Origin: Eisenibacter elegans DSM 3317 | Lineage (GTDB): Bacteria; Bacteroidota; Bacteroidia; Cytophagales; Microscillaceae | NCBI RefSeq assembly: GCF_000430505.1 | Contig: NZ_AUMD01000021.1 | Coordinates: forward strand, 1 to 64,000 | DNA length: 64,000 bases | Direction: 5' to 3' | Shown here: piece after piece, positions 7,063 through 36,125 of the stretch | Layout of the letters: each line of letters starts with the position of its first letter | How positions within the stretch are numbered: position 1 is the stretch's first letter | Notes under the pieces: model-generated | Database searches by the model: none | What the model saw: only the letters and a program-made list of their open reading frames with translations | Told to the model about the DNA's origin: nothing | Made by a program: the position numbers and the translations under genes

Positions 7063-7102
7063 AAGCGTGATTTTGAGAAGTAAGTGATAGACCGAACAGC
7101 TT

Positions 7103-7207
7103 TATACGCAACTAAAAGTAGTTTGTGGAAACAGATCTGCTGAAAAATCTTTGTGCATCAAGAAAATCAAATCCACTGAGCCCTTAAATCAAGTACATCT
7201 TGCCATA
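7103..7207 (+). repeat. Copy E of a MITE-like intergenic repeat family. Diverged, long form.
   Basis: 'TATACgCAAC...GTTTGtGgAAAc...GCTGAAAAATCtTTGtgCATCAAGAAAATCAAATCC...ATCTTGccATA' aligns with the copies at 17061, 21803, 30715(rc) and 36026(rc). Confidence 0.6.
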
Positions 7208-7339
7208 AAATGTGTTTCTGATGAGATGGGCGCAAGAGGCGAGGTATAGGGGTACAAATATTTGCGCTTTCCAACATTTGATTTTTTAGAAGATAATTGT
7301 ACCTTCATTGAGTACATACATATTTATTCCCAAGAGGAT

Positions 7340-7912
7340 ATGCAACAAGATTTAGAGAAAAACTACAAACCAGTGCGGTTTTCACGCACCACACTCAACG
7401 AATTGATGATTCCGGCCTATGCCAACTTTGGCGGCAAGATACACGGGGGTATTTTGCTTTCTTTGATGGACAAAGTGGCCTATGCCTGTGCCTACAAACA
7501 CGCTGGTACTTATTGTGTAACAGTAGCGGTAAACAGGGTCGAATTTTTGGAACCTGTAGAGGTGGGCGAGATGGTCAATATGTTGGCTTCGGTCAATTAT
7601 GTAGGCAAAAGCTCGATGGTGGTGGGAATCAAAGTCATCACCGAAAACTTCAAAACCGGCACCACCAAACACACCAATTCCTCCTACTTTACGATGGTTG
7701 CCAAGGACGACGAGGGGCGGCCTTCTACAGTACCCGGTCTTTTGCTCGAAACCCACGATGATGTCCGCCGATACCTCAAGGCTATCCGCTTGCGTACTTT
7801 ACGCCAACACATACGTACGGAGCTAGACAAGGTAGACCAGCATATTGACTACAGCCAGTTAGATACCCTATTGGCTGAAGAGCGCTGCCAGCTTCAACTC
7901 AAGACTGAGTAA
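7340..7912 (+). CDS. Acyl-CoA thioesterase (hotdog fold, YciA/Acot-like).
   Basis: 'GGKIHGGILLSLMDKVAYACA...VTVAVNRVEFLEPVEVGEMV' hotdog thioesterase core. Start placed at the internal ATG giving 'MQQDLEKNYKPVRF'. The raw ORF extends to 7262. Confidence 0.8.
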   Translation: MQQDLEKNYKPVRFSRTTLNELMIPAYANFGGKIHGGILLSLMDKVAYACAYKHAGTYCVTVAVNRVEFLEPVEVGEMVNMLASVNYVGKSSMVVGIKVITENFKTGTTKHTNSSYFTMVAKDDEGRPSTVPGLLLETHDDVRRYLKAIRLRTLRQHIRTELDKVDQHIDYSQLDTLLAEERCQLQLKTE

Positions 7913-8240
7913 CCTGACCGTTTTGTTTGGTAACGGCGATTTGGTTGCGCAGTTCGTGGGAGAGGCGCTTGACTTGCTCTTGGGGGCTTTTGTGTAGTTC
8001 GTGGGTGTAGCCGTGGAGGCTCAAAATCTCTTTATCCATACTGATAATGATGTTTTCGAGCGCCTCTACACGCTGCTGCAAATCCATTTGTTTGCCCAGA
8101 GACTCCTGCAGGGCTAGTTTTTCGGTTTTGCTAAGCCCACCGTTCTCGGCTTGTATGCGCTTGACACGGATGTAGGTGCGACCAAAAATGGCCGCTAAAG
8201 GCACAGACATTATGCTGAGTATAATAAGTACATCTTGCAT
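7899..8240 (-). CDS. Hypothetical small membrane-anchored coiled-coil protein.
   Basis: An N-terminal TM segment ('VLIILSIMSVPLAAIFG') followed by a heptad-rich helix. No recognisable family. Confidence 0.45.
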   Translation of the reverse strand: MQDVLIILSIMSVPLAAIFGRTYIRVKRIQAENGGLSKTEKLALQESLGKQMDLQQRVEALENIIISMDKEILSLHGYTHELHKSPQEQVKRLSHELRNQIAVTKQNGQVTQS

Positions 8241-8323
8241 AAGGAAGGGTGTTTAAAGGCTGATTAGTAACATTTCGCAATATAAAGACCAAGCCGTTTG
8301 CTGAGGGTTGCACAGCGAGTGAT

Positions 8324-9409
8324 TTATTTTTTCCGTTTTTTACCTTTATTTTGGGCGAAGCCTGTTTGCTCCAGCCACTGATGTAGATACTCCAAATAAC
8401 CGGGGAGATAGCTTTTTTCGAGGAACATATACTCTGCCGGGTTGCCGGTATTGGCTGCCTGAAAGAGGTGGTTTCCTTCGGGGAAGCGCTTGCTTTCGTG
8501 TGTGGGGTTGTACCCTTGGCGCAAGGCAGCCAACATTGGAGCTTCGTTTTGGTCTGGAGGGACTTGCAGATCTTTGTCGCCAAAGAGTAGTAAGGTTGGA
8601 CATCGAACTTTTTGGAGCGTCGGCACGGGGTCATAGCGCAAGAAAAAGCGCATCCAAGGGCTTTGAAGCGTAGCTTTTTGTTGCTCAAATAGATTTTTAA
8701 TCGCTTGTTCGGTGGCATTAGGTACTAGTTCCCCAAACAAGCCTTCCAACTCGTCCCAGCCTTGGTCGTCGATGGCGGCTTGATAAGCCAATCTATTGAA
8801 TGCCAGTGTTTTTGTTATTTGCTCAGGATTTTGCCCACTAACACCAAGGATAAGGCGGCTCTGTTCCATCAGCAGGCTGTCGCCACGCACGCCAACCGGC
8901 GCCGCCAACACCAAGCAGGCAATCTGGAGTTCAGGATATTGAGTAGCCACCATTGGCGCAATTACCCCGCCTTCGCTATGCCCATAGAGTCCGATACGGT
9001 GCGGGTCGATGTGTGGATGTTGACTCAGCCAGCGTACGGCAGCGCCAATATCTTGGGCAAAATCGGCAGAAGTAGCGGTGGCCATAGAGCCGGTAGAGCT
9101 GCCCACACCCCGGTCGTCGAGGCGCAAAACCGCTATTCCTCGGTTGCTTAGGTAGTGTGCCAAATCCCCAAAAAGCTTGAACCCAAAGAGGTTTGAGTCG
9201 CGGTCTTGGGGGCCACTGCCACTGATGAGCACCAAGACTGGAGGTTTCCCCTCCGGCGGGTAGGTCAGGGTACCGGCTAACACAAAATCTTCGACCTCAA
9301 TGCGTACTTCCTCACTACGGTAAAGGGTATCTTGTGCCCAAAGATATGAGAAGGGTAGGGTAGTAACAATCCACAAACAAAAAATACGTAGGCGTAGCAT
9401 CAGTATCAA
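8324..9409 (-). CDS. Secreted alpha/beta-fold hydrolase.
   Basis: Signal peptide, nucleophile elbow 'GHSEGG', and a 'GSGPQDRDSN' oxyanion region. Confidence 0.85.
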   Translation of the reverse strand: MILMLRLRIFCLWIVTTLPFSYLWAQDTLYRSEEVRIEVEDFVLAGTLTYPPEGKPPVLVLISGSGPQDRDSNLFGFKLFGDLAHYLSNRGIAVLRLDDRGVGSSTGSMATATSADFAQDIGAAVRWLSQHPHIDPHRIGLYGHSEGGVIAPMVATQYPELQIACLVLAAPVGVRGDSLLMEQSRLILGVSGQNPEQITKTLAFNRLAYQAAIDDQGWDELEGLFGELVPNATEQAIKNLFEQQKATLQSPWMRFFLRYDPVPTLQKVRCPTLLLFGDKDLQVPPDQNEAPMLAALRQGYNPTHESKRFPEGNHLFQAANTGNPAEYMFLEKSYLPGYLEYLHQWLEQTGFAQNKGKKRKK

Positions 9410-9818
9410 GTTAGTTAGGAGTAATTTTAGGAAATATACAAAAACCTAAGAAATTGTTGGTGTATAAGGGGTATTTTAAAGTTTGTTTAAGTTTTGTTAC
9501 CGGGTATTTTCTGGATCACCTAATGGCGCTTACGCTGTTTTGGTATAAAATATTGCATATTTCCTAATCAGGGCTGGATTCATCTAGTTTTAGCGTCTAG
9601 ATAGGGCGTACAACCACAAAAAGCTACTGACTTTTTGTGGCAAATGTATACCAAAATTCAGTATTAGGGCGCGCTGAATCAGATAAGATATTCCGAAAAA
9701 ACCGCAATAGGGATGCTCCTTGGTGGCCTTTGTGGTTAAATATGTGTCAAGAACAGGGGGTGAAATGAGTATAACAATGACAACAACCAAAAATGTCTAG
9801 TAGTGTGTGTCAATGATA

Positions 9819-9855
9819 AGAAAAAACGCTGACAAGTTGGTCGTCTTGTCAGCGT
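9819..9855 (-). terminator. Rho-independent terminator of metH.
   Basis: Minus-strand hairpin ACGCTGACAAGacgaccaaCTTGTCAGCGT, followed by TTTTTTCTT. Confidence 0.55.
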
Positions 9856-9864
9856 AGAGGTATT

Positions 9865-12800
9865 TTAGTTGTCGTAGTTGAGGTTGGGCGAGAGCCAGCG
9901 TTCGGCTTCGGCTATGCTTACCCCTTTGCGTTCGGCATAGGCTTGGACTTGGTCTTTTTCGATTTTACCCAGGCCAAAGTACTTGGATTGTGGGTGGGCA
10001 AAATACCATCCTGATACGGCGGCTGCCGGATACATCGCCAAGCTTTCGGTGAGGCATAAGCCGATTGACTCCTCTACTTCGAGCAAGCCGAAGAGGGTCA
10101 GCTTTTCGGTATGGTCGGGGCAGGCAGGGTAGCCCGGAGCAGGACGAATACCTTGGTATTTCTCACGGATAAGTGCGTCGTTATCAAGTGCTTCTTCGGG
10201 CACATACCCCCAAAATTCTTTACGGACGCGCTCGTGGAGGCGCTCCGCAAAAGCTTCGGCGAAGCGGTCGGCGAGAGCCTTGACCATAATGGCGTTGTAG
10301 TCGTCGTGGTCAGCTTCAAAAGCTTTGGCTTTTTCCTCTGCGCCATAGATGGCCACGGCAAAACCGCCGATATAGTCTTCTTTGCCGCTACCTACTGGGG
10401 CGATAAAGTCTGAGAGGGAGAGGTTGGGTACACCGTCAGCTTTTTGGGCCTGTTGGCGTAGCGACTGGATGGTGGCGATCGTTTGGCTGCGGTCTTCGTG
10501 ATAGGCCAGCTCCGAAACGTTGCCGTGGGTGTGGCTATTGGCTTGGCGGGCAGCGGTAGCTTCTAGTTCGGCAGTAGCATAACGGTATACTGCGATTTCG
10601 TCGTGGTTTTGCGTATTGGCCGGGAAGAACCCACAGACGGCCTTGGCTGTAAACCATTTTTCTTCAATGATTTGCGCCAGCATCTGCTGTGCATCTGCAT
10701 AGAGCTTGGTGGCTTCCTTGCCCACTACCTCGTCTTCGAGGATGTTGGGGAAGCGCCCGTGTAGCTCCCAAGTCTGGAAGAAAGGAGTCCAGTCGATGTA
10801 TTGTGCCAGCTCGTCGAGAGGGTAATCGGCCAGTACTTTTTTACCCAGAAACTGCGGCTTGACAATCTCGGTAGCGTCCCAGTCGATCTGAAATTTGTTT
10901 TGCTGCGCCTTTTCGATAGGGAGCATACTTTTGTCTTTCTTGCGGTTGGCGTGTCCTTCGCGCATCCGGTCATACTCCGCGCGGATTTGTGCTGCATAGG
11001 TAGCCTTGTTGTCTTCGCTGAGCAAGTTGCTCACTACGGGCACGCTGCGCGAGGCATCGAGCACGTGTACAACGGAGCCACTGTATTTGGGCGCTATTTT
11101 GACGGCAGTGTGGATTTTGGAGGTCGTTGCTCCGCCAATGAGTAGCGGGATGGTAAAACCTAGGCGTTCCATTTCGGCGGCTACGTGCACCATCTCGTCG
11201 AGGCTGGGGGTAATCAGCCCGCTCAGGCCGATGACATCCACTTGGTGTTTTTTGGCTTCCTCCAAAATCTTTTCGGCAGAGACCATTACACCCAAGTCTA
11301 TCACTTCGTAGTTGTTACAGGCCAGTACTACACCGACGATGTTTTTGCCGATATCGTGTACATCTCCTTTTACGGTAGCCATCAGTACCTTGCCTCCGCC
11401 TTGGTTGCTCAGCTCACCACGGGCGGCGGCGGCGGCCTTAGCCTCTTCCATAAAAGGCATCAGGTAGGCCACCGATTTTTTCATCACCCGAGCACTTTTC
11501 ACTACTTGGGGCAAAAACATTTTGCCCTCTCCAAATAGGTCGCCTACGACGTTCATCCCGGCCATCAGTGGGCCTTCGATTACGTGTAGCGGCTCTGGGT
11601 ATAGTTTGCGAGCCTCTTCAGTGTCTTCGTCTATGTATTCGGTAATGCCTTTGAGCAGGGCGTGTTTGAGGCGCTCTTCTACTGGAGCGTTGCGCCAAGC
11701 ATCGTCACGTACTTTTTCCTTGCCTTGGTTTTTGACCGTCTCGGCATAGTCTACCAAGCGTTCGGTGGCATCGGGACGGCGGTTGAGCAATACATCTTCG
11801 ATGAGTTCGAGCATATCTTTGGGGATATCCTCGTATACTTCTATCATCCCGGCATTGACAATACCCATATCCAGCCCTGCCTTGATGGCGTGATAAAGGA
11901 AGGCCGCGTGCATAGCCTCGCGTACCACATTGTTGCCACGGAAAGAGAAAGAGATATTACTCACCCCGCCGCTCACCTTGGCGTGAGGGAGGTTTTGCTT
12001 GATCCAACGTGTGGCCTCGATAAAGTCCACAGCATAATTGTTATGTTCTTCGATACCCGTCGCGACGGTCAGGATGTTGGGGTCGAAGATGATGTCTTGG
12101 GGAGGGAAGTGAACCTCATTGACCAAAATATCATAAGCGCGTTTACAGATTTCGAGGCGGCGCTCATAGCTGTCGGCTTGACCTTGTTCATCGAAGGCCA
12201 TCACTACTACGGCAGCGCCATAGCGGCGCACTAGGCGGGCTTGCTCTTTAAATTTTTCTTCTCCTTCTTTGAGCGAGATAGAGTTGACAATACCCTTGCC
12301 CTGAATACACTTCAGGCCGGCCTCGATGACTGTCCACTTAGAGGAGTCAATCATCACAGGCAGACGAGCGATTTCGGGTTCGGCAGCCATCAGGTTGAGG
12401 AAGGTCGTCATGACCTGCTCGGAGTCGAGCATCCCCTCGTCCATATTGACATCTATCACCTGTGCCCCACCCTCTACTTGGTCGAGGGCTACACTGAGGG
12501 CTTCTTCGTATTTTTCTTCTTGAATGAGGCGCTTAAACTTGATAGATCCGGTTACGTTGGTACGTTCTCCGATGTTGACAAAGTTGGTCATCTCGGTAAC
12601 TTTTACCGGCTCTAGGCCACTAAGCTTGAGGTATTTGTCGGCTTCTTTGGGGGTACGGGGGCTATATTTGGCAGCGGCCTCTGCAATGGCTTGAATGTGA
12701 TCGGGGGTAGTACCACAGCAGCCACCGATGATGTTGAGCCAGCCATTTTGCAAAAATTCTTCAATGACTGCCACCATCTCCTGCGGGGTTTCGTCATATT

Positions 12801-13656
12801 CCCCAAACTCGTTGGGCAAGCCCGCATTGGGGTGAGCCGAAACCATAAAGTGTGATTCTTTGGACAGCGATTGGATATAAGGCCGCATCAAGTCAGCACC
12901 TAGCGCACAGTTAACGCCTACACTGAGCAAGGGCAGGTGCTCGATAGAGTATAGGAAAGCTTCGATGGTTTGCCCTGAGAGGGTACGCCCACTGGCATCG
13001 GTGATGGTGCCAGATACCATAATTGGCAGCCTCACTCCGGCATCTTCGTAGTATTTTTCGATGGCAAAAAGTGCTGCTTTGGCATTGAGGGTGTCAAACA
13101 CGGTTTCGACCAAGAGCAAGTCTGACCCACCTTCTACCAAGGCTTTGGCCTGTTCATAATAGGCTGTTACGAGTTCGTCGAAGGTAACGGCACGGTATCC
13201 GGGGTTGTTTACATCAGGCGAAAGGGAGGCTGTACGGTTGGTAGGGCCCATCGAGCCGGCTACAAAACGCGGCTTGTCGGGGTTTAAGGCCGTTACTTCT
13301 AAAGCCACCTCTTTGGCAATACGTGCCGACTCATAGTTGAGCTCATACACTAAGTCTTCCATATGGTAATCGGCCATAGCAATGGTCGTTCCGCTGAAAG
13401 TATTGGTTTCGATGATGTCTGCACCGGCTTCTAGGTATTGGCGGTGGATGGTCTTGATAATTTCGGGCTGTGTGAGCGAGAGCAGGTCATTGTTGCCTTT
13501 GAGCGAGTGGGCGTAGTCCTTGAAGCGTTCCGAGCGGTAGTCTTCTTCAGTAAGGTTGTAACGTTGGATCATCGTGCCCATAGCACCATCAAGGACTAGG
13601 ATACGATGTTGGAGAATGTCGTAAATGCTCATCGAATAGGGGTTTTGAGTGACCAA
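9865..13656 (-). CDS. metH: Cobalamin-dependent methionine synthase.
   Basis: 1263 aa with all modules present: Hcy S-methyltransferase, pterin-binding, a B12-binding '[10 protein letters not shown]' (DxHxxG), and an AdoMet activation domain. Confidence 0.95.
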
Positions 13657-13787
13657 AAATTAACATCAAACCGCGCCGTCCCGATGCAGAAAGTAACAAA
13701 GGGCAACGCAGCGCTTCAATTAGTAGCCGGAAAAGCCGACTACTTGCGGTAGTGCTGAATACTCAGAAATTGGGTTTGATGAATTCA

Positions 13788-13899
13788 GACTTATATGTCC
13801 CCAAGGAGGCCTCCTTATTGGGCAGGAATTAGCACCTTGCCGAGCGGCAGGTTGCCAGCGCTTCACAGAGCCTGTTCTCTTCGCGCTTCTGTATAAGTC
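13788..13899 (-). promoter_or_regulatory. SAM-I (S-box) riboswitch aptamer in the metH 5' leader.
   Basis: On the minus strand: P1 'GACTTATA'/'TATAAGTC'. Core 'GAAGAGAacaGGCTCTgtGAAGCGCTGGCAACC'. The 'GGCAAGGTGCTAATTCCTGCC' hallmark. A P4 hairpin 'CCCAAtaaggaggcctccTTGGG'. A second hairpin at 13723-13747 lies in the expression platform. Confidence 0.6.
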
Positions 13900-14586
13900 T
13901 TCTCTTGCGAAAAAGAGGAGACGGATAATTAGCCTACAAAAGTAAGGCAATTTTTCCCAAAAACCCATCTCAGCCCCAAAAAGTTCTATAGAAGGCGGTT
14001 TAATTCAAAAAAATAGTATTTTTCTAAGGCTTGATGATGACTTAGGGGGGTATACCTAGGATGAAGCTCTCTTCGTTTGATTCGAAGCCAAAGCGCCACG
14101 GGTTTTTATATTTGGAGCTTATTGCCCTATGCGGAGCAATGCTTCCATGTTTGTTTTAAACCATTGGGTTTTCGCTAAGTCATTTTTCGAAATATGTTGT
14201 CTTTGCGATAATTGAGTGCAATAAGACTTCATTGGTAAGACCTTGTAATAAGTATCAAAGTCATCACTATTCAAATAGACAGCATCAATTCAAACGATTA
14301 TTGCCCACTTTGATAATAATACAACTGTTAGCTGAGATATCTAAAAAATCTCTGCATTCTATGGATTATATGTACAATGAAAATCCTTACATAGCATCTT
14401 CGTTAGAAGAAGGCAGCTAAAAACACGCCCAGCAGCACTTTGCTTGCCGAAGGAATTATCTGACCCAAGGGCTGTGTTTTAGTAATTGACGATTTGGGAT
14501 TTACGGTGGCCTACGGACAATCTTGGAATGACGAAGTAACAGCTAAAATCCCAAATCGTAGTTCGTCAATCGTAATCCCCAAACAG

Positions 14587-17025: not shown

Positions 17026-17060
17026 GCCACATACAATACCCAACCCACGGATGTCTTTTA

Positions 17061-17146
17061 TACCCAATCAAAATTGGTTTGGAGAATTTCTGGCACCAAA
17101 AATCCTTGATTATCAAGAAAATCAAATCAAGTGAATCTTGGTATAA
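17061..17146 (+). repeat. Copy A of a MITE-like intergenic repeat family. Short form.
   Basis: 'TACCCAATCAAAATTGGTTTGGAGAATTTCTGGCACCAAAAATCCTTGATTATCAAGAAAATCAAATCAAGTGAATCTTGGTATA'. Terminal inverted repeats 'TAcCCAA..TTGGTA'. Internal palindromes CCAAAattGGTTTGG and CCTTGATtATCAAGG. Confidence 0.7.
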
Positions 17147-17417
17147 TTTGACCTTAACGCAACAGGTTTCTCATCATCAAACCACTATCCTTTACTCTCC
17201 CCTTTACGTTCTTTGTGAATACTTTACACCTTTTTTGGTTAAATGTATTATACTGAGAACCCGGGGTGTCAAAATATGCAACATAGCACCAAAAATTGCA
17301 AATATCCAGAGGTTTTAAAATTACCTAAATCCCGACTGATGCTACTGGCGCTTTTGCCAAGATTTATTAACTTGTTGGACAATTGATACTCTTTTTCATT
17401 TTTCCCACGATAAACCT

Positions 17418-18950
17418 ATGTCAGATACTAATCGAGAACGCGACCTAGTGTTAGCTCCCAATGAGTTTGCCTTTATCTCCGACCAAACCAAGGGCAATAT
17501 CAATGTGTATGTAGGGCCTTACAAAACCAGCTTAGCCAATACGGATAAGCCGGTTATTTTTGATGAGCTGCTCAAGCGGTTTGAAAAATGCAACCTTGAA
17601 GAGTCTATCCAGACTTTCAGCACTGCGCCCGAAGGCTGGTATTTGGTACTCAAAAACCCTCCATTAGACAACAAACAGCCCAAAACAGGCACTTCTAACA
17701 GCCTACCCGATTTACAGATAGGGCGTAAGGTCAATATCCCCGGGCCCGTATTTTTTGCCCTTTGGCCCGGGCAGATGGTTCGTGTGATTCCTGGGCATCA
17801 CCTGCGCTCCAACCAATACCTGCTCGTACGGGTATACGACGAAGAGGAGGCGCGGCGCAACTGGGGGAAGGCTGTTATTAAGACCAAGAGCGGCGCTGAC
17901 CTCGAGTCTGAAACCCCCGACGAAGTTACGGGCAAAGAAGAAATCCCTGACCTGACCATCGGCAAGACCTTGGTCATCAAAGGCGATATGGTCTCGTTTT
18001 ATATCCCCCCTACAGGGGTAGAGGTCGTGCGTGATGGCTACAGCAACTATGTCCGTGAGGCTGTCACCTTAGAGCGTTTGGAGTACTGTATTCTGCTGGA
18101 CGAAAGCGGCAACAAGCGCTACATCCAAGGCCCTGCCGTGGTATTTCCAGAACCTACTGAGGAATTTGTTAAGCTCAATGGCTACCGTAAGTTCAAGGCC
18201 ATCGAACTCAACGAAAACAGCGGTCTCTATATCAAGGTCATCGCTCCATACAAAGAAGGTAAAACAGAGTATGATGCCGGTAGTGAATTATTCATCACAG
18301 GCAAAGACACGATGATATACTACCCCCGCCCCGAACACGCTATTATCAAGTACGGAGGGCGCGAAAAACACTACGCCGTTGCTATTCCGGCGGGTGAAGG
18401 ACGTTATTATATGAATCGCAACACCGGGCAGATTTACCTCAAAAAGGGGCCTTCGATTTTTCTTCCCGACCCCCGCGAGGAGGTCTTCGTACGCCGGGTA
18501 CTACACCCAAAACAAGTCGCCCTTTGGTTTCCGGGCAATGCCGAGGCTTTGGCTTATAACCGACAACTACAGGCAGAACTGGAGCGGAAACAGCGTAGCG
18601 ATCAGTTTTATATCGAAGACTCTGAGTTACAGGCGTTACAGAGTGAAGCTGCTCCGGCTCCGGCACAAGCTTCTGAAGCTCCCAAGCTCCGCAAGAAAGA
18701 GGCGACTTCTGAGGAGATGGCCTCCGATGAGTTTAGCCGCTCACAGTCATTCACACAGCCACGCAGCATCGTGCTCGATACCAAGTACGAAGGAGCTGTT
18801 ACCATCAACCTCTGGACGGGCTATGCTGTACAGGTGGTCAGCAAAACTGGCACGCGCAAGGTCATTGTAGGCCCACAGACTTATCTGTTGGAATATGACG
18901 AAAGCCTCGAAGCAATGGAGCTTTCAACTGGTGTTCCCAAAACCGAATAA
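17418..18950 (+). CDS. Major vault protein (MVP) homologue, N-terminal MVP-repeat region. Ends at an in-frame TAA inside conserved sequence; possibly a pseudogene or a sequencing error.
   Basis: Repeated ~55-aa MVP-repeat modules. 'NEFAFISDQTKGNINVYVGPYKTSLANTDKPVIF' resembles eukaryotic MVP '[33 protein letters not shown]'. 'ILLDESGNKRYIQGPAVVFPEPTEEF' resembles '[27 protein letters not shown]'. The ORF is in the same frame as 18981-19940. Confidence 0.7.
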   Translation: MSDTNRERDLVLAPNEFAFISDQTKGNINVYVGPYKTSLANTDKPVIFDELLKRFEKCNLEESIQTFSTAPEGWYLVLKNPPLDNKQPKTGTSNSLPDLQIGRKVNIPGPVFFALWPGQMVRVIPGHHLRSNQYLLVRVYDEEEARRNWGKAVIKTKSGADLESETPDEVTGKEEIPDLTIGKTLVIKGDMVSFYIPPTGVEVVRDGYSNYVREAVTLERLEYCILLDESGNKRYIQGPAVVFPEPTEEFVKLNGYRKFKAIELNENSGLYIKVIAPYKEGKTEYDAGSELFITGKDTMIYYPRPEHAIIKYGGREKHYAVAIPAGEGRYYMNRNTGQIYLKKGPSIFLPDPREEVFVRRVLHPKQVALWFPGNAEALAYNRQLQAELERKQRSDQFYIEDSELQALQSEAAPAPAQASEAPKLRKKEATSEEMASDEFSRSQSFTQPRSIVLDTKYEGAVTINLWTGYAVQVVSKTGTRKVIVGPQTYLLEYDESLEAMELSTGVPKTE

Positions 18951-18980
18951 GATGCTCTCCGGACGGTCTACCTGCGCGTA

Positions 18981-19940
18981 TTGCACAACAAAATCTCAGA
19001 CCTTATCCGTGCCGAATCCAAAGACTATACCCAAGTCAGTATCTACCTCTCATACCGGGTCAATTTTGAGGGCGACCCTGAGCTTTGGTTCAATGTCGAA
19101 AACTACGTTAAGTTCCTGACTGACCATATGCGCTCTTTTGTCCGCAATGCGGTCAAGAAACACGATATTATGGCCTTCTATGCCAATGGTATTGACATCC
19201 TGCGCGACACAGTCTTGGGCAAAGAACTAAGCAAGGATGGCAAGCGCCAAGGGCGCATTTTTGAAGAAAACGGAATGCGCATTTACGATGTAGAGGTACT
19301 TGATATTCGTCTAAGTGATGCCACACTCGAAAGCCTGCTCGTACAATCGCAGCAAGATGTAGTCAAGCAGACACTCCGTATAGAGGCCGAAAAGCGGAAA
19401 TTGACCTTTACCCAAGAGAGCGAGCAAATCAGCCAATCAATCGCCGAGGCCGAATCAGCTACCAAGCAGAAAAAAGCGACGCTCGAAGCGCAAGAAATCA
19501 CCCAAGAGCTACAAACTACGCTCACCCGCTTGCAGGCCGAAATAGAGGCTAGGCACGTGCAACTCAAAGCCGAAGTGGCCGAACAGGAGCACCTCGACCA
19601 AGTCAAAACTGCCGAACTGGCACGCGAGCGCCAAGAGGTCGAGCTCTCTCTCGAAGTCGCCCAACGTGAACTAGAGCAGTACATCCAAGAGGTACGGGCA
19701 GAGGTCAAGGCAGTGGTCGAAAAAGCACAGGCGGTATCCCCCGACTTGGTAGCAGCGCTACAGGCCTTCTCCGACAAAGCCCTGGCACAAAAAATGGCCG
19801 ACTCGATGGCTCCCCTCGCCATCTTGGGTGGCAAGAGCATCGCCGAAGTCTTTGCCAACCTTCTCAAAGGTACACAAGTAGCCCACGTGCTCAAACGCAG
19901 TGCCGAGCTACTTGACCAAGCCGACGAAGAACAGGACTAG
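18981..19940 (+). CDS. MVP homologue C-terminal part: SPFH-like shoulder domain plus cap-helix coiled coil. In frame with the upstream ORF across a single TAA.
   Basis: 'DALRTVYLRVLHNKISDLIRAESKDYTQVSIYLSYRVNF' aligns with eukaryotic MVP '..[38 protein letters not shown]'. This is followed by a long E/Q/A-rich coiled coil like the vault cap helix. The apparent start at 18981 is TTG. Confidence 0.7.
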   Translation: MHNKISDLIRAESKDYTQVSIYLSYRVNFEGDPELWFNVENYVKFLTDHMRSFVRNAVKKHDIMAFYANGIDILRDTVLGKELSKDGKRQGRIFEENGMRIYDVEVLDIRLSDATLESLLVQSQQDVVKQTLRIEAEKRKLTFTQESEQISQSIAEAESATKQKKATLEAQEITQELQTTLTRLQAEIEARHVQLKAEVAEQEHLDQVKTAELARERQEVELSLEVAQRELEQYIQEVRAEVKAVVEKAQAVSPDLVAALQAFSDKALAQKMADSMAPLAILGGKSIAEVFANLLKGTQVAHVLKRSAELLDQADEEQD

Positions 19941-20071: not shown

Positions 20072-20455
20072 TTGATGCCAACCCAACAACAGCAAATTAT
20101 CGAAGCCTATATCCAAGCCTATAATCAGTTTGATATAGCCGGAATGATGGCCAACCTTAGCGAAGGAGTCGTCTTTGAGAATGTAACTAACGGAATCGTA
20201 GACCTCCGTCTCGAAGGCATAGAGGCATTCCGACAACAAGCTGAAGCCGCCACTGCGTATTTCAGTCAACGCCAACAAATACCCACAAATTGGATGTTTG
20301 AGGGCAATGTGGTTACAGTCAGTATTGAATACAAGGCGGCATTGGCCATAGACCTGCCCAATGGGATGAAAAACGGGGATACGCTTACTTTGCAGGGGAC
20401 TTCAAGGTTTGAGTTTGAAGGGGAGGCAATCGTGCTGATTCGGGATGAGAGTTAG
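20072..20455 (+). CDS. NTF2-like/SnoaL-like small protein.
   Basis: 127 aa. 'QQIIEAYIQAYNQFDIAGMMANLSEGVVFEN' is typical of the N-terminal helix of SnoaL/ketosteroid-isomerase-like folds. Confidence 0.55.
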   Translation: MMPTQQQQIIEAYIQAYNQFDIAGMMANLSEGVVFENVTNGIVDLRLEGIEAFRQQAEAATAYFSQRQQIPTNWMFEGNVVTVSIEYKAALAIDLPNGMKNGDTLTLQGTSRFEFEGEAIVLIRDES

Positions 20456-21788: not shown

Positions 21789-21802
21789 AAAAATTATAAA
21801 TA

Positions 21803-21888
21803 TATACCCAACCAAAATCGGTTTGGGAAATGTGTGTGCTGAGAATCCTTGAGCATCAAGAAAATCAAATCTTGTGAATCTTGGTATA
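21803..21888 (+). repeat. Copy B of the MITE-like repeat. Short form, direct relative to copy A.
   Basis: 'TATACCCAACCAAAATCGGTTTGGGAAATGTGTGTGCTGAGAATCCTTGAGCATCAAGAAAATCAAATCTTGTGAATCTTGGTATA'. Confidence 0.7.
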
Positions 21889-22044
21889 AGTCGTAAAATT
21901 GTATGTGATTGCAATTTTGCACAGATTGTTGCTTTTGTGATGATTCGGGCTTATTTTAACCCATGTTAGCGCGCTAAGCTCCCTCGAAGCGACGCTAACT
22001 TCCAAACATCTCTGATACTTTATCCGACCCAAACTCATAGTGGT

Positions 22045-24994: not shown

Positions 24995-25037
24995 TTTAGT
25001 TGGTGTTTAGTATGTCGTTGTGATGGAAATAGTTTAG

Positions 25038-26058: not shown

Positions 26059-26586
26059 TCAACGTTTTAAGCTGATGGTCTCATTCACAATACCCCTTGC
26101 GGCAAGCCAATCACGCACTGCGTGCCCCGTACCGCTATCCCAAGGCTGAAGGTCTTGAGGGGTGATGTATTTGTAGTCTGCTAGCTCTTCGTTAAGCGTA
26201 ATGGGTGCGCCAGCTTCTGCCCGTACGTGATAGGCGATGATGAGTTGGTTCATCCAATCGAAAGTATACAGACCTACCAACGATACCAGCTCCGCTGTCA
26301 AGCCCAGCTCCTCCTGTACCTCGCGCAACACGGCCTCTTCAGGCGTTTCTTTTTTCTCCAAAAAGCCCGTAATCAACCCATACCAGTGGGTAGGCCAGCG
26401 TTGGTTACGTGCCAAGACGACCATCCCGTCTTGCTCTACAATGGCCGCCACTACAGGCGTGGGGTTGTCATAATGAACATATCCACAACTGGCATTTGAG
26501 CAAACCAAGCGTTGGCGGTCTTCGGTGGGGAGTTGGCGCAGCCCAAAAGGGCTGGCACAAACAGGACAAAACTTGAAAGTAGGCAT
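26059..26586 (-). CDS. NUDIX hydrolase with N-terminal zinc ribbon (NudC-like).
   Basis: 'CPVCASP...CSNASCGYVHYDNP' zinc ribbon, then a NUDIX box 'GFLEKKETPEEAVLREVQEELGL'. Confidence 0.8.
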   Translation of the reverse strand: MPTFKFCPVCASPFGLRQLPTEDRQRLVCSNASCGYVHYDNPTPVVAAIVEQDGMVVLARNQRWPTHWYGLITGFLEKKETPEEAVLREVQEELGLTAELVSLVGLYTFDWMNQLIIAYHVRAEAGAPITLNEELADYKYITPQDLQPWDSGTGHAVRDWLAARGIVNETISLKR

Positions 26587-26993
26587 CGTTTAGTTGTTGG
26601 GCTAAGTGAAACTAGAATGGAGTAAAGCTATAAAAAAAACCCTGAACCGACCTATACTTTGGCCAAGACCCAAGGCAGTTATACACGAAAGTAAGTTTTT
26701 TTGCGTTTTGTTTTCGACTAAGTTACAATTGGATAGGTTTTTGGTATCTATTTTGTTGAATCATAGTACATTGACCGTAGCAATGCTATCAAGAGTACAA
26801 GGTGGTACTTTTGCTTAAGCAAGGCTACCCCCATTTCCTTGGAAATATTGGAAATAAATGTATGGCTCTCAGGTGTGGATAAGTGAGAATATTTTGTATT
26901 TTGCAGGCAGAATACCATACCCAGCACCTTTGAAACATATCAAGGCACCGTTAACTAAACTAGCATCTATCCAAAACATTTACTAATCGTTGT

Positions 26994-29237: not shown

Positions 29238-29280
29238 AACCCATATCGGAAAATTCTGTTAGACTCTGAACCTACCTAAA

Positions 29281-30666
29281 ATGATACTTTACTTGCGCTT
29301 TATAGTCCTGTTTTCCTGTATCTTGTATGTCGGGCTGTGGCAAACCCCTGCTGCTTTTTCACAAGGATGTATTTTGGATGAACAAGCGTATGCGCAAGTA
29401 CCGCTCAAACCCCTGATGCGTAGTGGCAACTTGCCTAGCTATGCATCGTTGCGCGCATATGCCCCTATCCCCAAAGACCAAGGAGCCTATGGTAATTGTG
29501 TGGGTTGGACAACCGCCTATGCAGGGCGTACCATTATGTTGGCTTATCAACAAAACTGGCGTGACCCTGTGCTGACAACCCAGAATGCACTTTCGCCTTT
29601 TTTTGTATATGAGCAAGCTAAATCAAGAGTAGACATTGATTGTAAGGAGGGCACACTGCTAGTACACGCACTCGAAGAGCTGAAAAACGTAGGCGTGGTT
29701 AAGTTCTCAGATTTTGCTGAAAGCTGTGGCAAACCGATTACCGCACAAGATCGCGCCAACGCCGGTAAGTTTCGTATCCAAAATTATCATCGGTTGTTTG
29801 ACAGCAGGGCAGCCAATGCCAGCAAAATAGCCGCCATCAAGGAAGTGTTGGCCAACCACAAACCTGTATTGGTTGGCCTTACGGCCATTTTCCCCTCTTT
29901 CCGAAATGCCAAAGGCGTTGCTGTCTGGAATCCTATACAAGGGGAAAACCCTAATAAAGGTAGCGGACACGCAGTGGCTATCGTGGGTTATGATGACCAT
30001 AAGTATGGAGGTGCTTTCCAACTGATGAACAGCTGGGGCACTACTTGGGGGGAGCAAGGCTTCATATGGGTGCGTTACCAAGATATGGCCACACTTTGCT
30101 TCGAAGCCTATGAAATGACTATCGAAAAGCCTAACCTCTATACCATGTCAGGCAATATCCGGTTTATTTTGTCTGCCGGATATGATATGAAGGCCGTATA
30201 CAAAGAGGGATATTATGAGATGCGAGAGCCTTACCACTCCGGCACACTCTTTCGCCTACAGGTGTCTAATCATCGCCCAGCCTATGTCTATGTTATCGGG
30301 GCAGATGCGGTCAACAAGGCCTACAAAATATTCCCACAAGATGCCCATACTACCCCTTTTTTGGGACAAGACAATAGCACCGTAGCCCTGCCCAGTGCAG
30401 AGCATTATGTCAAAATGGACAAAACCATTGGCACAGATTATTTTTGTATTTTATATTCTTCGGAGCCTATTCCCATAGAAGAAGTCATATCACAAATGAA
30501 ACGCTTCTCGGGTACATTCAAAGAGCGCCTTGAGCTGGCTCTCAAAGGGCGATTAGCCCCTATGCAATCTATTGACTACCTGCGCAATGGAGAAATTGGC
30601 TTTTATTCAGAAAGTGATAAAAATACGATTGTGCCCATTATCGTGGCCATCAAACACGTAGACTAA
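29281..30666 (+). CDS. Secreted papain-like cysteine peptidase (family C1) with a ~180-aa C-terminal domain of unknown function.
   Basis: 'QGAYGNCVGWTTAY' (Gln/Cys), 'GHAVAIVGYDD' (His), 'NSWGTTWGEQGFIWV' (Asn-Ser-Trp), all in canonical order. N-terminal signal peptide. Confidence 0.8.
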   Translation: MILYLRFIVLFSCILYVGLWQTPAAFSQGCILDEQAYAQVPLKPLMRSGNLPSYASLRAYAPIPKDQGAYGNCVGWTTAYAGRTIMLAYQQNWRDPVLTTQNALSPFFVYEQAKSRVDIDCKEGTLLVHALEELKNVGVVKFSDFAESCGKPITAQDRANAGKFRIQNYHRLFDSRAANASKIAAIKEVLANHKPVLVGLTAIFPSFRNAKGVAVWNPIQGENPNKGSGHAVAIVGYDDHKYGGAFQLMNSWGTTWGEQGFIWVRYQDMATLCFEAYEMTIEKPNLYTMSGNIRFILSAGYDMKAVYKEGYYEMREPYHSGTLFRLQVSNHRPAYVYVIGADAVNKAYKIFPQDAHTTPFLGQDNSTVALPSAEHYVKMDKTIGTDYFCILYSSEPIPIEEVISQMKRFSGTFKERLELALKGRLAPMQSIDYLRNGEIGFYSESDKNTIVPIIVAIKHVD

Positions 30667-30714
30667 TACTATTGAACATTTGCTAAGTTGGCCTTGACTA
30701 ACAAGCCCTTATTG

Positions 30715-30816
30715 TACCAAGATTCACAAGATTTGGGGATTTGCAGGGTTTGATTTTCTTGGTTATCAAGGATTTTCAGCACCAAGATTTCCCAAACCAA
30801 TTGTGGTTGAGTATAT
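30715..30816 (-). repeat. Copy C of the MITE-like repeat. Long form, inverted. A degenerate partial second copy lies at 30817-30880.
   Basis: Its reverse complement, 'TATACTCAACCACAATTGGTTTGGGAAATCTTGGTGCTGAAAATCCTTGATAACCAAGAAAATCAAACCCTGCAAATCCCCAAATCTTGTGAATCTTGGTA', aligns with copies A/B plus a 17-nt insert. Confidence 0.7.
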
Positions 30817-30957
30817 ACCAAAATCCACTTGATTTGAGAGTTGACAGTACTTGGTTATCAAGGATGTTGAGGTTAGAGGTTTGTACTCTCTGCCCTTTGT
30901 GTTTAAATATATGCTGAACGCCAGACTAGAAGGATATAAATCTACCAAACAGATAAA

Positions 30958-30992
30958 AAAACGCAACCCCAAGGGGCTGCGTTTTGGTATGT
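30958..30992. terminator. Bidirectional intrinsic terminator (downstream of gap on the minus strand and of the C1 peptidase on the plus strand).
   Basis: 'AAAAAACGCAACCCCaaggGGGCTGCGTTTTGG': a 9-bp stem with one mismatch, and a T-run on both strands. Confidence 0.55.
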
Positions 30993-31014
30993 ATGAGGGG
31001 TATCGTTTTTTGGA

Positions 31015-32031
<1,017 letters not shown>

Positions 32032-32153
32032 TCAAATAAGAACGTGCCTTCAAAAGGCATGACAAAATTAGGGAGTTTTGCGCAATTAACCAATGCTGAA
32101 AAAAGCGCATATCAGTAGAAGCAGTTTTTGGGCAGATACTTTGGCAGTCTACA

Positions 32154-33068
32154 TCAAGGTATCAGGTATTGGTATGTCCAGCGCTCGATGTGGCCGTTGT
32201 GGTAGGTGCGGGTAGTTTCGGAAGGGTATCCGTAGGCGTTGTAGAGGTGGGTTTGTCGAAAGGAGAAGGGGGTATATACCGATCCCTGATTCACGACTTG
32301 GTATTGCGCCTCTAAGACTACATTGTCCGACAGGTCCCAGACTTCTATGGGGTAGATACCCGAGCGGCGGCGTTCGTTGGGAGCTTGAGTATCATAGCGC
32401 AGATTCCCTACCAAGACCGGCCCTAGCTCACGGCTACCCAGCGGGTGGGCATAGGTACGGTGTAGGGTGATATTGTTGTAGGCATCATATTCAAACTCTT
32501 GGTAATTATCGATTTCTAGCCCTGCACCGGGCTTCATACTGTTGTGCCCGCCGTGTCCTTGGGGTGGGGTGGTAGGGGGGCTATCCAGCTCTTCGTGGGC
32601 GTGGTAATATTCTCGCCTTACAAGCCGGCTTTGGGTGTCATAATAGAACAGCTCTTCGTGGTGGCGCTCAAACCGAGTCCAGTCAGAAGGCACTACCTTG
32701 TAGTGTATGGTTTTCAAGAGCGCACCACGGTTGTTGTATTCATAGGTTTCATACTCACGTTCTACACCTTGGGCATCAAAAAGCGATTTTCGGCTTGGGC
32801 GGCCTTGTTCGTTGTATTGCCAGCGCTCTGTGAGCGAGTCTAAGTTGGCGCTATAGGTGATGCGGGTGCTGAGCTTACGCTGTTGGTATTCGAAACGTTG
32901 GTAAGGTTGGCCATCGCGCAAGACAACCGTAACCATTAGCCGGGGATCTTGGCGGCGGTTGTCGGGTTCAAACATAAGCTCGTGTTGCATTTGGCAAGCC
33001 GAAAGCCCAACGATGATACTCAACAGCAAGTATAACATTGGAGTGTATGGAGTCAGGAAGTGTTTCAT
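32154..33068 (-). CDS. Hypothetical lipoprotein with YD-repeat-like segments.
   Basis: Lipobox 'LSAC' after the signal peptide. Repeated 'Y.Y..G.L' style motifs. Confidence 0.6.
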   Translation of the reverse strand: MKHFLTPYTPMLYLLLSIIVGLSACQMQHELMFEPDNRRQDPRLMVTVVLRDGQPYQRFEYQQRKLSTRITYSANLDSLTERWQYNEQGRPSRKSLFDAQGVEREYETYEYNNRGALLKTIHYKVVPSDWTRFERHHEELFYYDTQSRLVRREYYHAHEELDSPPTTPPQGHGGHNSMKPGAGLEIDNYQEFEYDAYNNITLHRTYAHPLGSRELGPVLVGNLRYDTQAPNERRRSGIYPIEVWDLSDNVVLEAQYQVVNQGSVYTPFSFRQTHLYNAYGYPSETTRTYHNGHIERWTYQYLIP

Positions 33069-33109
33069 AGCAGTATCATACCAAAAAGGTTCAAGAGTTG
33101 AGATAAGGT

Positions 33110-35290
33110 TTATGGATGAGGAGTGCAGCCCAGCTTGAAGCCAATGAGCAACACATCGTCAATCTGCGCGTGCTCGCCCTTCCATTTCATAAAATAATCA
33201 AAAAGTGAGGCAGATTGTTCCTCCAAAGGCAGATGATGTACCTCACTGAGCAATTCTTTGAACTGCGTAACGCTAATTTTACGCCCAGTTTGGCCATTAA
33301 ACTGGTCTTTGTATCCATCCGAAAAAAGGTAACATTGCGTTGGCTGATTGAGCAGGAGGGTATACTCTTCGAAAGGCTGCCGCTGTTCGTGCATCAGCCC
33401 GCCTGCGGGTTGCGGAGTACCCTTGAATAGCTGCATCTTCCCGTTTTGAAAATAGACCATAGGCAGGTTGGCGCCGGCAAAAGTCAAGGTTTGGTTTTGC
33501 TCATCAATCACACAAAGCCCTATTTCCATCCCCTCGATATTGTCCAGCTCTTTTTTCTTGAGTACGTGGTTGATGCGGTTGTTTAGCTCGGTCAATATTT
33601 TTGTCGGCTGGGTGTGGTGTTCGAAGCGTACAATCTGGTCGAGTAGGTCATTGCCTACCAATGACATAAACGCACCGGGGACGCCGTGGCCTGTACAATC
33701 GACGCAGGCCAGTACGGTTTTGGGCGCTTGATTGGGGAGCTGAAGGTGTGTAAACCAATAAAAATCGCCGGATACGATATTTTTGGGTAGGTTCAACACA
33801 AATAGCTCCGGGATATGCCGACGGATTTCGTGCATACTCGGCAAGATAGCGTGTTGTATGCGTTTGGCGTTGTTGAGCGAGCTGAGGTAATCGTGTTGTT
33901 GTTGCCGCAGAAGCTTTTCTTGGGTGCTGATTTGCTCGTTTTTGTCGCGCAGGTGTAGGCGTTGTAGTTGTAATAGGTGGTTATATCGCCGGATGCGCTT
34001 GTTGGCTTTTCTCCAGAAATAGCCCGCCACCGACACCAACAACACCAGCAAAACCAAGCTAAGAATGATATAATATTGCCGTATAATTTCGTCTTTTTGG
34101 CGTGCCAATTGTAGGGTTTGGATGGTATGTTGGGCGTTAAGCTCTTGTATTTGTCGGTCTTTCTCGGCACTTTGGTAGCGAATGCGCGCATCATTGATGC
34201 GTTGGGTAGTTATTTCGTCTCGGAGTGAATCACGATAAACGCTATAATTTTTGTGATAGGCCAAGGCCAGCGCGTAATCTTGTCGGGCTTCAGCACAGGT
34301 TACCAAGTCGGCATACAGGTCGCGGGTATATTTTTTAAATCCTGTTCGGAGGGCTATATTGAGCGCAATGAGCAAATAATCGGCGGCCTGCTCCCATTGT
34401 TTTTGTTGCATAGACATCTGCCCCAAGCCCTGATAGTCTCTCAAGATGCCCTCTTCGTGGTTTAGGTCTTGGTTGATGGCCAATGCCCTATGGAGATAGG
34501 TAGCTGCTATAGCCGGTTTGTTTTGGAGGCTGTTTACCCTGCCCAAAAAATTTAGGCTAATGGCTACACCGGCTTGGTGTCCGTGAGCTTGATGTATTGA
34601 TAAGGCTTTTTTGAAACAGACAGTAGCCTGTGCCAAACTATCAATGATGAGAAACACTTCTCCTAAATAATTGTAGCTATCTGCCAGCCCGCGTGCGTCC
34701 TGAATACGTTCTCGTAGTGCCAGCGCCTGTTGGTGGTATTTGAGGGCTTGTAAGTACTCTTGATTTTGGAAATAAAACTTGCCAATATTTTTGAGTGTAT
34801 GCCCAAGCCCTACATCATCACGAAGTCGCTTGCGAATTTCTAAAGACTCAAATAGTAAGTTTAGAACTATGCTGTTGTCGCCGGCTTCCATGTGGTATTC
34901 GCCCAAGAGATTGAGCACAAAGCCCTGTCCATAAAGCAACCCTTGTTTTTTAAAAATCTTAAGCGCCATTTCATACTCTTGCATCGCTTTCAGGGGGCTA
35001 CCAGCATAATTATGGGCTACACCGGCATACATATAAGCATAGGCCAGCCCTTCATAATATTGGATGGCGATGGCTTTTTCTTTGGCTTGCTCAGCATACA
35101 CAATCGCTTGTTTGCTGTGATTGGAGCGCCACTCCCAAGCTTTACGATTGAGCGCATTGATTTGAGCCGTATCTTGAATAAACATCACAGACCGCCCTGA
35201 GGTTTGAGCCGGCAAGCGCTCGGCTAAGCCTAGTCCCCCAACAAAACTTAGCCATAAGCCCAATAAGAAAAGCCGAAGCCTCATACGCAA
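33110..35290 (-). CDS. TPR-repeat sensor protein with a TM segment and a C-terminal PP2C/SpoIIE-type Ser/Thr phosphatase domain.
   Basis: Signal peptide, multiple TPRs, a coiled coil with a TM helix ('LVLLVLLVSVAGYFW'), and SpoIIE motifs 'SGDFYWF' and 'DCTGHGVPGAFMS'. Confidence 0.8.
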   Translation of the reverse strand: MRMRLRLFLLGLWLSFVGGLGLAERLPAQTSGRSVMFIQDTAQINALNRKAWEWRSNHSKQAIVYAEQAKEKAIAIQYYEGLAYAYMYAGVAHNYAGSPLKAMQEYEMALKIFKKQGLLYGQGFVLNLLGEYHMEAGDNSIVLNLLFESLEIRKRLRDDVGLGHTLKNIGKFYFQNQEYLQALKYHQQALALRERIQDARGLADSYNYLGEVFLIIDSLAQATVCFKKALSIHQAHGHQAGVAISLNFLGRVNSLQNKPAIAATYLHRALAINQDLNHEEGILRDYQGLGQMSMQQKQWEQAADYLLIALNIALRTGFKKYTRDLYADLVTCAEARQDYALALAYHKNYSVYRDSLRDEITTQRINDARIRYQSAEKDRQIQELNAQHTIQTLQLARQKDEIIRQYYIILSLVLLVLLVSVAGYFWRKANKRIRRYNHLLQLQRLHLRDKNEQISTQEKLLRQQQHDYLSSLNNAKRIQHAILPSMHEIRRHIPELFVLNLPKNIVSGDFYWFTHLQLPNQAPKTVLACVDCTGHGVPGAFMSLVGNDLLDQIVRFEHHTQPTKILTELNNRINHVLKKKELDNIEGMEIGLCVIDEQNQTLTFAGANLPMVYFQNGKMQLFKGTPQPAGGLMHEQRQPFEEYTLLLNQPTQCYLFSDGYKDQFNGQTGRKISVTQFKELLSEVHHLPLEEQSASLFDYFMKWKGEHAQIDDVLLIGFKLGCTPHP

Positions 35291-35445
35291 GTAAGTAATG
35301 TTTAGTTACAAATCTAACTATTTTTTTTCTCCATCAAAGCCTCAGCATACTCAAGTACAAATAATTTTTCACAAAGTCTCAAACCAATTCTAAAACCCTT
35401 ACCTTTGTTGTATCAATATTTCGTTTACCTAATCGCCGTTGTCTA

Positions 35446-35841
35446 ATGAACGCACAAGAACGCGAAGAACTCAAAGATGCCTCTATCGGTTTGGCAGAAG
35501 TAATTGTCAGCCTTGCCCACCACGTCGCTATGCTGGATGGCAAAATCGATGAGGATGACGAAGACCTTGCCGATGCCATCGTAGAAAACCTTTTCGACCC
35601 TGAAGAAGGGCTTTTTACAGAAGGATTCTTGTCTGAAGAAGAAGAAGAAGAAGTCTTGGATATTTTGGAAGAAACTTATCGCGAAAACCCATATGCTATG
35701 GAAGAGCTGTTGGATTTTTGTACAAAAGATGAAGAGCTAGCCGAAATCTTACTGGACATTGCTGAGCAAATGTTGGGCGAACCCGAAACGCATACCGCCG
35801 ACGAGCAAGCTTTCTTGCAGCGCCTGCGCGAAGCCAAATAG
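35446..35841 (+). CDS. Acidic TerB-like small protein, hypothetical.
   Basis: 'LAHHVAMLDGKIDEDDED' resembles the TerB/DjlA-N signature. Extremely acidic (EEEEEE run). Confidence 0.45.
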   Translation: MNAQEREELKDASIGLAEVIVSLAHHVAMLDGKIDEDDEDLADAIVENLFDPEEGLFTEGFLSEEEEEEVLDILEETYRENPYAMEELLDFCTKDEELAEILLDIAEQMLGEPETHTADEQAFLQRLREAK

Positions 35842-36025
35842 GTTTGCCTCCGCTATCGTTCAAAAGCCCTTAACTGAGTTCTCAGCTAAGGGCTTTGTTG
35901 TATTATATACCAAGGATTGTTAAAGTGAATTGCTCTGATGCTCAGGGAGTTTCAGCACATACCTCTCCAATCTCACTGAGTCATTATCTCCCTCCTGTGC
36001 GGTGAGACCTAAGGAGCAAAATATA

Positions 36026-36125
36026 CTAAGATTCACAAGATTTGGGGATTTACAGGATTTTATTTCCTTGATTATCAAGGATTTTCAGTGTGTAGATTTC
36101 CCCAAACCAATTGTGATTGAGTATA
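36026..36125 (-). repeat. Copy D of the MITE-like repeat. Long form, inverted.
   Basis: Its reverse complement, 'TATACTCAATCACAATTGGTTTGGGGAAATCTACACACTGAAAATCCTTGATAATCAAGGAAATAAAATCCTGTAAATCCCCAAATCTTGTGAATCTTAGT', matches copy C. Confidence 0.7.

Follow-up and report, generated by a model that had tools for sequence, protein, structure and literature searches.

Miniature inverted-repeat transposable elements, or MITEs, usually measure under 200–400 bp, carry no transposase gene, occur as dispersed multi-copy repeats, and have terminal inverted repeats and a target-site duplication (Delihas 2011, PMC3184786). In this study, we analyzed a family of intergenic repeats in a 64,000-nt stretch of DNA from Eisenibacter elegans DSM 3317, a gliding bacterium of the Cytophagales; this whole stretch (~49% GC, ~85% coding) is called the window below. 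With five full copies and at least three fragments in 64 kb, the family is multi-copy, transposase-free and of generic MITE size (under 200–400 bp), and it recurs in a second genome, the metagenome-assembled genome (MAG) CAYZQI01 ("uncultured Cytophagaceae bacterium SRP141376_co5_355"). We consider it fairly probable that these lineage-restricted, AT-rich, dyad-symmetric intergenic repeats stem from a non-autonomous DNA transposon (a MITE), some as copies and others as decaying fragments. The label MITE-like is used here for what is probably a decayed MITE, neither a proven one nor one assigned to IS630.

Correia elements of Neisseria (CREE/NEMIS) are TA-flanked and exist in long and short forms that arise via internal deletion. 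They are intergenic and hairpin-forming, often lie beside genes, have terminal inverted repeats of 26 bp and contain an IHF site as well as functional promoters; their mobility has been shown by strain comparison, and we know of no cognate transposase. They are MITEs of about 104–157 bp (PMC3184786). The E. elegans repeat resembles them in size, palindromy, TA flanks, long and short forms, intergenic sites and lack of a known transposase, but it has no sequence relationship to them, only a 6–9-bp perfect terminal repeat, and a weak 9/12 promoter match. RUP of pneumococcus (~107 bp) and Nezha (130–170 bp) have terminal inverted repeats, flanking direct repeats, a stable predicted structure and intergenic locations; both are mobilised by IS630-family transposases, each has a known parent insertion sequence (IS) whose inverted repeats match, and Nezha has documented sites in both the filled and the empty state (PMC3184786). 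In size, terminal inverted repeats and intergenic sites, the E. elegans repeat is like these two. IS630-family elements duplicate TA; since an attribution to IS630/Tc1 draws on the TA flanks alone, an IS630 origin of the E. elegans repeat would be a guess.

ERIC, or enterobacterial RU-1, repeats are ~127-bp imperfect palindromes that are intergenic, often transcribed, flanked by 5'-TA-3', conserved across genera and variable through internal indels (PMC3184786). The E. elegans repeat differs from them in belonging to another phylum and in showing no sequence similarity; ERIC copies are mostly orthologous and seemingly immobile, whereas the E. elegans and MAG copies occupy unrelated loci. REP/BIME sequences are RAYT-associated, GC-rich single hairpins of 20–40 nt that cluster between genes, often in convergent regions. 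Like them, the E. elegans repeat is palindromic, extragenic and clustered; unlike them, its unit is ~100 bp, AT-rich including the stems, and bounded by defined inverted ends. No Y1 transposase (RAYT) was found among the ~30 window proteins scanned against Pfam. To our knowledge, almost nothing has been described about such repeats in the Cytophagales. The titles and abstracts of the papers found to mention Eisenibacter deal with taxonomy and nomenclature and none with repeats, and the family appears undescribed so far.

We searched the window with nhmmer, using a first profile built from the five E. elegans copies and a second, improved profile that gave refined boundaries. All five full copies were recovered, with refined boundaries within 1–3 nt of where a preliminary description of this DNA had placed them. 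The first profile matched 7102–7204(+), 17058–17150(+), 21802–21891(+), 30716–30816(-) and 36025–36126(-), with E-values of 4.5e-22 to 3.5e-29; the overall range for the five copies was 1e-17 to 1e-29. The shared core noted there was also confirmed: a 28-nt core, AATCCTTGAnnATCAAGAAAATCAAATC, matched five times with at most 3 mismatches and gave 0 matches in 100 dinucleotide shuffles. The partial copy reported beside copy D proved to be real, and the copy number of "at least 5" was exceeded by at least three further fragments in the window and three members beyond its right end. The members in the window are listed below (RNA z compares the fold of the element strand with shuffled sequence).

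Copy A, 7103 to 7206 (+): long form (nhmmer E 1e-21 to 1e-23; RNA z +0.7), the most degenerate full copy with 67–77% identity to the others, in intergenic DNA from which genes for a metallophosphoesterase and a 4HBT thioesterase (Pfam) diverge.
Copy B, 17059 to 17145 (+): short form without the 17-nt block (nhmmer and gene calls), starting 34 nt past the stop codon of a P-type ATPase gene and upstream of the MVP gene.
Copy C, 21803 to 21888 (+): short form (nhmmer), starting 15 nt past the stop codon of a glycosyltransferase gene and upstream of a CoA-transferase gene.
Copy D, 30714 to 30815 (-): long form (nhmmer), in the convergent intergenic region between a peptidase C1 gene and gap.
Copy F, 30816 to 30874 (-): truncated and internally deleted, abutting D (E 3e-6).
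Copy E, 36022 to 36125 (-): long form, the best hairpin (RNA z -5.5), in intergenic DNA where a 131-aa gene and a 203-aa gene converge.
Degenerate copy, 35903 to 35970 (-): 52 nt from E, ending ...CCTTGGTATATAA, beside the intrinsic terminator of the 131-aa gene.
Left half-copy ATACCCAATCAAGCTTGGTTGGGGAAGTGTATCTGAAAATCCT, 5732 to 5774 (+): without the right half (E 4e-4); the 3' end of the neighbouring gene starts there.
Left-end-like scrap AATACCCAACCCA, about 17035 to 17050 (+): 9 nt upstream of copy B, weak evidence.
Doubtful remnant TCAAGAAAATCAAAT...CCTTGGCATAAA, 44507 to 44544 (-): intergenic, not significant (E 0.36).

The three members beyond the right end lie in locus L049, which extends 10 kb past the window and is 100% identical to it in the overlap; they are one degenerate copy and two diverged, internally deleted copies placed head to head (10845–10985). 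The intergenic placement claimed for the family holds for all members. A random 90-mer falls wholly within intergenic DNA with a probability of 0.095, so that the chance for five copies is ~8e-6. The family accounts for ~7% of all intergenic DNA in the window, at a density of about one copy or fragment per 6–8 kb, and its copies cluster: F abuts D, a second copy lies 52 nt from E, and a scrap lies beside B. A separate 45-nt stretch at 56489–56533, GTACCCAATATGCG...CGCCTTGGTACA, has ends that resemble the repeat termini (TACCCAA...TTGGTA), a likeness that may be due to chance; a Logan contig of the same strain starts near it, at 56538.

The unit was defined on a hand-curated alignment of nine full copies (five from E. 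elegans and four from the MAG). The results showed that it runs from TATACCCAA to TTGGTATA, that full copies measure 86–104 bp, and that none contains an open reading frame (ORF). The alignment upheld the long and short forms, which a block of 17 nt sets apart, the two internal palindromes and the terminal inverted repeats described earlier, with TATACC(C)AA pairing with TTGGTATA at the ends of all nine copies. Copies A, D and E and all four MAG copies are of the long form (~103 nt), and B and C are of the 86-bp short form. The right half of the long form reads ...GGAAATC AAATC CTGTAAATC CTCAAATC AAGTGAATC TTGG, a tandem array of AAATC units, and the 17-nt block consists of two such units of 8–9 nt, so that the length difference looks like slippage or deletion between direct repeats. 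When the left half was aligned with the reverse complement of the right half, scores of 9 and 17 were obtained, above the maxima of 6 and 3 in 500 shuffles, indicating that imperfect palindromy extends through the entire long form. The palindrome is centred on a 7-bp hairpin, TCCTTGAnnnTCAAGGA (TCCTTGA-N3-TCAAGGA). Derivatives with differing internal deletions, namely B, C, fragment F and the two diverged copies at L049 10845–10985, retain the termini.

The claim that TA flanks every copy needs correction: TA or TATA stands at 17 of the 18 ends of the nine full copies, but on its outer side D has CA (TG on the + strand). The base outside the TA is T on the left in 8/9 copies and A on the right in 7/9, which suggests a TTAA-like target site. 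At the junction of F and D, ...TTTTGGTA-TA-TACTCAACC... (TTGGTA-TA-TACTCAA), a single TA is common to both copies, as expected if one element had entered the TA flanking the other.

A core-pattern scan of one genome per species, in which E. elegans itself was not among the genomes returned, found four copies, all in MAG CAYZQI01, all of the long form and with identical ends. The MAG loci (36–41% GC, against 49% in the window) are not homologous to the window, and the repeat is the sole DNA that they have in common with it; in the two genomes the copies lie at unrelated loci, beside unrelated housekeeping genes. The E. elegans copies are 80–87% identical to one another (A, 67–77%) and 79–86% identical to the MAG copies, and the MAG copies are 88–95% alike. 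This star-like pattern is as expected of copies of different ages from one master, old in one host and younger in the other.

The MAG lineage is sparse in copies: the entire MAG gave four pattern matches, and the 19.9 kb of locus L057 a single copy. We also compared ~115 kb of DNA from the closest relatives sampled, fetched via homologues of GAPDH (85–89% identity), MVP (70–72%) and the MoxR ATPase (81–94%), the last being the MAG gene that adjoins copy M3. No copy was found in it, including the region of L054 and L055 that corresponds to the M3 site. A metagenome scan with a 22-nt core pattern returned 29 loci that matched the pattern alone and are attributed to chance, scans of viral contigs with three patterns gave chance matches only, and blastn of the consensus against plasmid and phage collections gave no match. 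Judged from these searches, the family is narrow, dense in E. elegans and sparse in one low-GC lineage.

The window is part of a 244.6-kb NCBI contig and runs co-linear to the 179-kb JGI contig from a sister strain; the GAPDH encoded at 31015–32010 is identical to a protein listed by NCBI under E. elegans. Copies C, D and E contain the ends of short-read assemblies, both from the same strain and from a sister strain; within C, two independent assemblies end, L005 at window position 21849 and L006 at 21830. These contig ends indicate that near-identical k-mers exist elsewhere in the genome.

Several results weigh against a mobile origin. The perfect terminal inverted repeat is short (6–9 bp), and TA/TATA is palindromic, so that a target duplication is inseparable from the inverted repeat; one flank is CA. 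In the three near-identical assemblies of the strain-level comparison (99.4–99.8% identity to the window), no filled/empty polymorphism was found: every copy was in place and indels were of only 1–3 nt. Empty sites were also sought via the GAPDH and MVP homologues, whose loci in the relatives lack synteny with the window. Around MoxR the MAG and its relatives are syntenic, and M3 was the single cross-species orthologous site compared. There, the relatives carry an SnoaL_2 gene between Ppx and MoxR, a place taken in the MAG by 430 nt of AT-rich, unrelated DNA including M3. The coordinates are as follows.

SnoaL_2 and M3: window 20075 to 20455; L054 4503 to 4883; L055 3591 to 3971; L057 9521 to 10000.

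This gene-sized replacement makes the copy lineage-specific, but it is no clean insertion or excision. The window's own 126-aa SnoaL_2 gene adjoins MVP and shares 53% identity with the Ppx/MoxR-flanked SnoaL_2 of two MAG relatives.

On the same side of the balance, no transposase was found among the ~30 window proteins scanned against Pfam, nor for the remaining genes in the gene tables of the overlapping assemblies, and no longer element with the same ends was present in the loci compared. The E. elegans copies differ from one another by 13–33%, which indicates that there was no recent burst. Divergence is also uneven along the unit: among B, C, D, E and one MAG copy, 8/10 columns between the left and central hairpins vary, compared with 19/78 elsewhere (Fisher p ~0.001), a pattern not predicted by pure neutral decay. 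It could reflect constraint, or subfamilies derived from different masters.

Taken with these points, the description as a MITE-like family stands as the best available reading, on the grounds of sharp ends in two genomes, end-keeping deletions, clustering in intergenic DNA past the terminators of neighbouring genes, a shared TA, contig breaks and star-like divergence, but not as proof of mobility. In a decayed MITE, a transposase encoded outside the window would have mobilised the repeats by recognising the ends TA|TACCCAA...TTGGTA|TA, and only copies that landed between genes would have survived. The 86-bp short form would derive from the ~103-bp unit by loss of two 8–9-nt AAATC units, and the shorter derivatives by larger internal deletions. 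We infer that transposition was the means of spread; its target was presumably TA within a TTAA-like context, and the repeat is presumably inactive today in E. elegans.

The near-invariance of parts of the unit also bears on a different explanation, in which the repeat is a structured element maintained by the host at the RNA level, acting as a stabiliser of 3' untranslated regions, an RNase target, a terminator-like structure or a small RNA, and spread like ERIC, BOX or SPRITE with its hairpin and AAATC tract kept by selection. We regard this as unlikely, although part of the evidence fits it. The 7-bp central hairpin and the A-rich/AAATC tract are almost invariant across genomes 10 GC points apart, while the adjacent 10 nt are hypervariable, and the majority of copies lie just past stop codons. 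The consensus of the long form folds into one extended imperfect hairpin, and in the long forms 91% of the proposed cells are paired, compared with 21–50% when partner columns are slid. Two pairs are changed on both sides, one from C-G to U-A via U-G (terminal stem, D and E) and one from A-U to G-C (D). With seven sequences, however, this covariation is not significant, since 127/500 shuffles equal it. The short forms lack one arm of the long-range stem. The consensus fold energies on the two strands are nearly equal (-14.8 and -15.9 kcal/mol), which indicates a DNA palindrome and not a strand-specific RNA.

At the level of single copies, the preliminary description had each copy folding into a stable hairpin RNA. 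This holds for only some of them: E (RNA z -5.5) and the MAG copies (-1.6 to -3.7) fold better than shuffled sequence, C is at -2.1, and A (+0.7), B (-0.9) and D (-1.1) fold no better than shuffled sequence. Between strains of E. elegans, single-nucleotide polymorphisms (SNPs) were counted at 3/506 positions in the repeats (0.59%), 11/2822 in other intergenic DNA (0.39%) and 51/24143 in coding DNA (0.21%). SNP density in the repeats is thus not lowered and, in what is a weak test, gives no hint of purifying selection on them. Truncated fragments are numerous, which also speaks against an RNA function. Only 4–5 copies lie between co-directional genes, and of four such copies three are sense and one is antisense; orientation is uninformative, because the genes beside most copies converge or diverge, so that a copy is sense to one of them whichever way it points. 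At the gathering threshold, Rfam 15 gave only the 5S rRNA and a SAM riboswitch in the whole window and no match on the copies, and nothing on the copies was obtained at E up to 5 for the region with D and E. No Bacteroidota-type promoter motif was seen by eye in the consensus, and a sigma-70 scan gave nothing beyond a weak match (9/12) that overlaps C at its right end.

A role in termination was considered and rejected for D/F and E, as gap and the 131-aa gene have their own terminators nearer their stop codons. Copies D/F lie beyond gap's GC-rich terminator at 30958–30985 (-), and copy E lies past the GC-rich intrinsic terminator that serves the 131-aa gene; these upstream terminators are a further point against an RNA element. 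At these sites the repeats are passengers rather than terminators, and the D/F and E sites are transcriptionally quiet DNA that tolerates insertions, a point in favour of mobility. Only the central hairpin of E passed the terminator scan, and it did so on the opposite strand. GC-rich stem-loops that are strong, carry T-runs and are in part bidirectional were seen at 30958–30985 (-), directly after gap, at about 35850–35895, after the 131-aa gene, and at 5650–5685, near 5.65 kb. Given these stem-loops, E. elegans seems to use canonical terminator-like hairpins, with the repeats outside them.

It is improbable that the repeat is a dispersed protein-binding module at the DNA level, whether the 7-3-7 palindrome TCCTTGAnnnTCAAGGA is taken as the operator of a dimeric regulator or the phased AAATC repeats as the binding site of a nucleoid or architectural protein. 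Such a role would suit a perfect, nearly invariant palindrome and an AAATC motif recurring every 8–9 nt. However, 3/9 full copies lie in convergent 3'-3' regions with no promoter to regulate, the flanking housekeeping genes are functionally unrelated, and a conserved ~100-bp unit with defined ends far exceeds the size of an operator.

More doubtful again is a modular RNA or DNA device exapted by the host, in which the copy-specific hypervariable 10 nt would sit on a conserved scaffold made up of a terminal stem, the apical hairpin TCCTTGAnnnTCAAGGA and phased, possibly protein-binding AAATC repeats. If this were true, these 10 nt might confer specificity on each copy, as cis-acting or antisense regulators or as addressable protein-binding sites, and the device would be conserved in two Cytophagales genera despite a 10-point difference in GC.

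Finally, the proposal that the pairs B/C and D/E, each in the same orientation and ~4.7–5.3 kb apart, bracket the MVP block and the segment that runs from gap as far as the 131-aa gene, as ends of composite mobile units, found no support and is very improbable even though the context of MVP and SnoaL_2 varies among relatives, because pairs ~5 kb apart are expected by chance at one copy or fragment per 6–8 kb, the D/E segment carries the housekeeping GAPDH gene (31015–32010; closest homologues in related Cytophagales, at most 89%), identity within a pair is only 80–87%, no duplication flanks the composite, and synteny is poor everywhere in the lineage, not just at the bracketed blocks.

In the MVP homologue between B and C (17418–19940), a nonsense change from CAA to TAA at 18948 (stop 18948–18950) leaves two ORFs, of 510 and 319 aa. 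The window shares this change with the identical assembly L005, and the gene is intact (830–840 aa) in the E. elegans-like L006 and P0121. Relatives in the Microscillaceae and Bernardetiaceae widely carry bacterial MVP homologues, at 60–72% identity.

Elsewhere in the window, a 5S rRNA gene lies at the very start (130–242, +); the JGI contig of the sister strain begins at this gene, so an rRNA operon is probably located just left of the window. The SAM-I riboswitch (13788–13899, -; 74 bits) is upstream of the methionine synthase gene metH (9865–13656, -). Two large ORFs, of 1244 aa (50421–54155, +) and 561 aa (40396–42081, -), have no Pfam match. A C-5 cytosine DNA methyltransferase gene (44757–46040, -) overlaps an upstream 195-aa ORF (45955–46542), and the two may form a restriction-modification pair. 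The AT-rich region 54200–55900, compared with L048 1200–2900, is the part of the window most divergent from the JGI sister strain, with several 1–3-nt indels and clustered SNPs; gene calls differ there, with an abhydrolase of 289 aa in the window and one of 216 aa, plus a 69-aa ABC fragment, in the sister strain.

As it stands, the repeat family changes no general picture and is most probably an ordinary kind of bacterial "junk" repeat. Small palindromic repeats influence the make-up of intergenic regions in bacteria, fragment short-read assemblies and can hold regulatory signals. The E. elegans family would serve as a marker for Eisenibacter and its relatives, and calls for caution in annotation and assembly of these genomes. 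If a parent transposase or empty sites were found, it would provide a new example of a MITE in the Bacteroidota.

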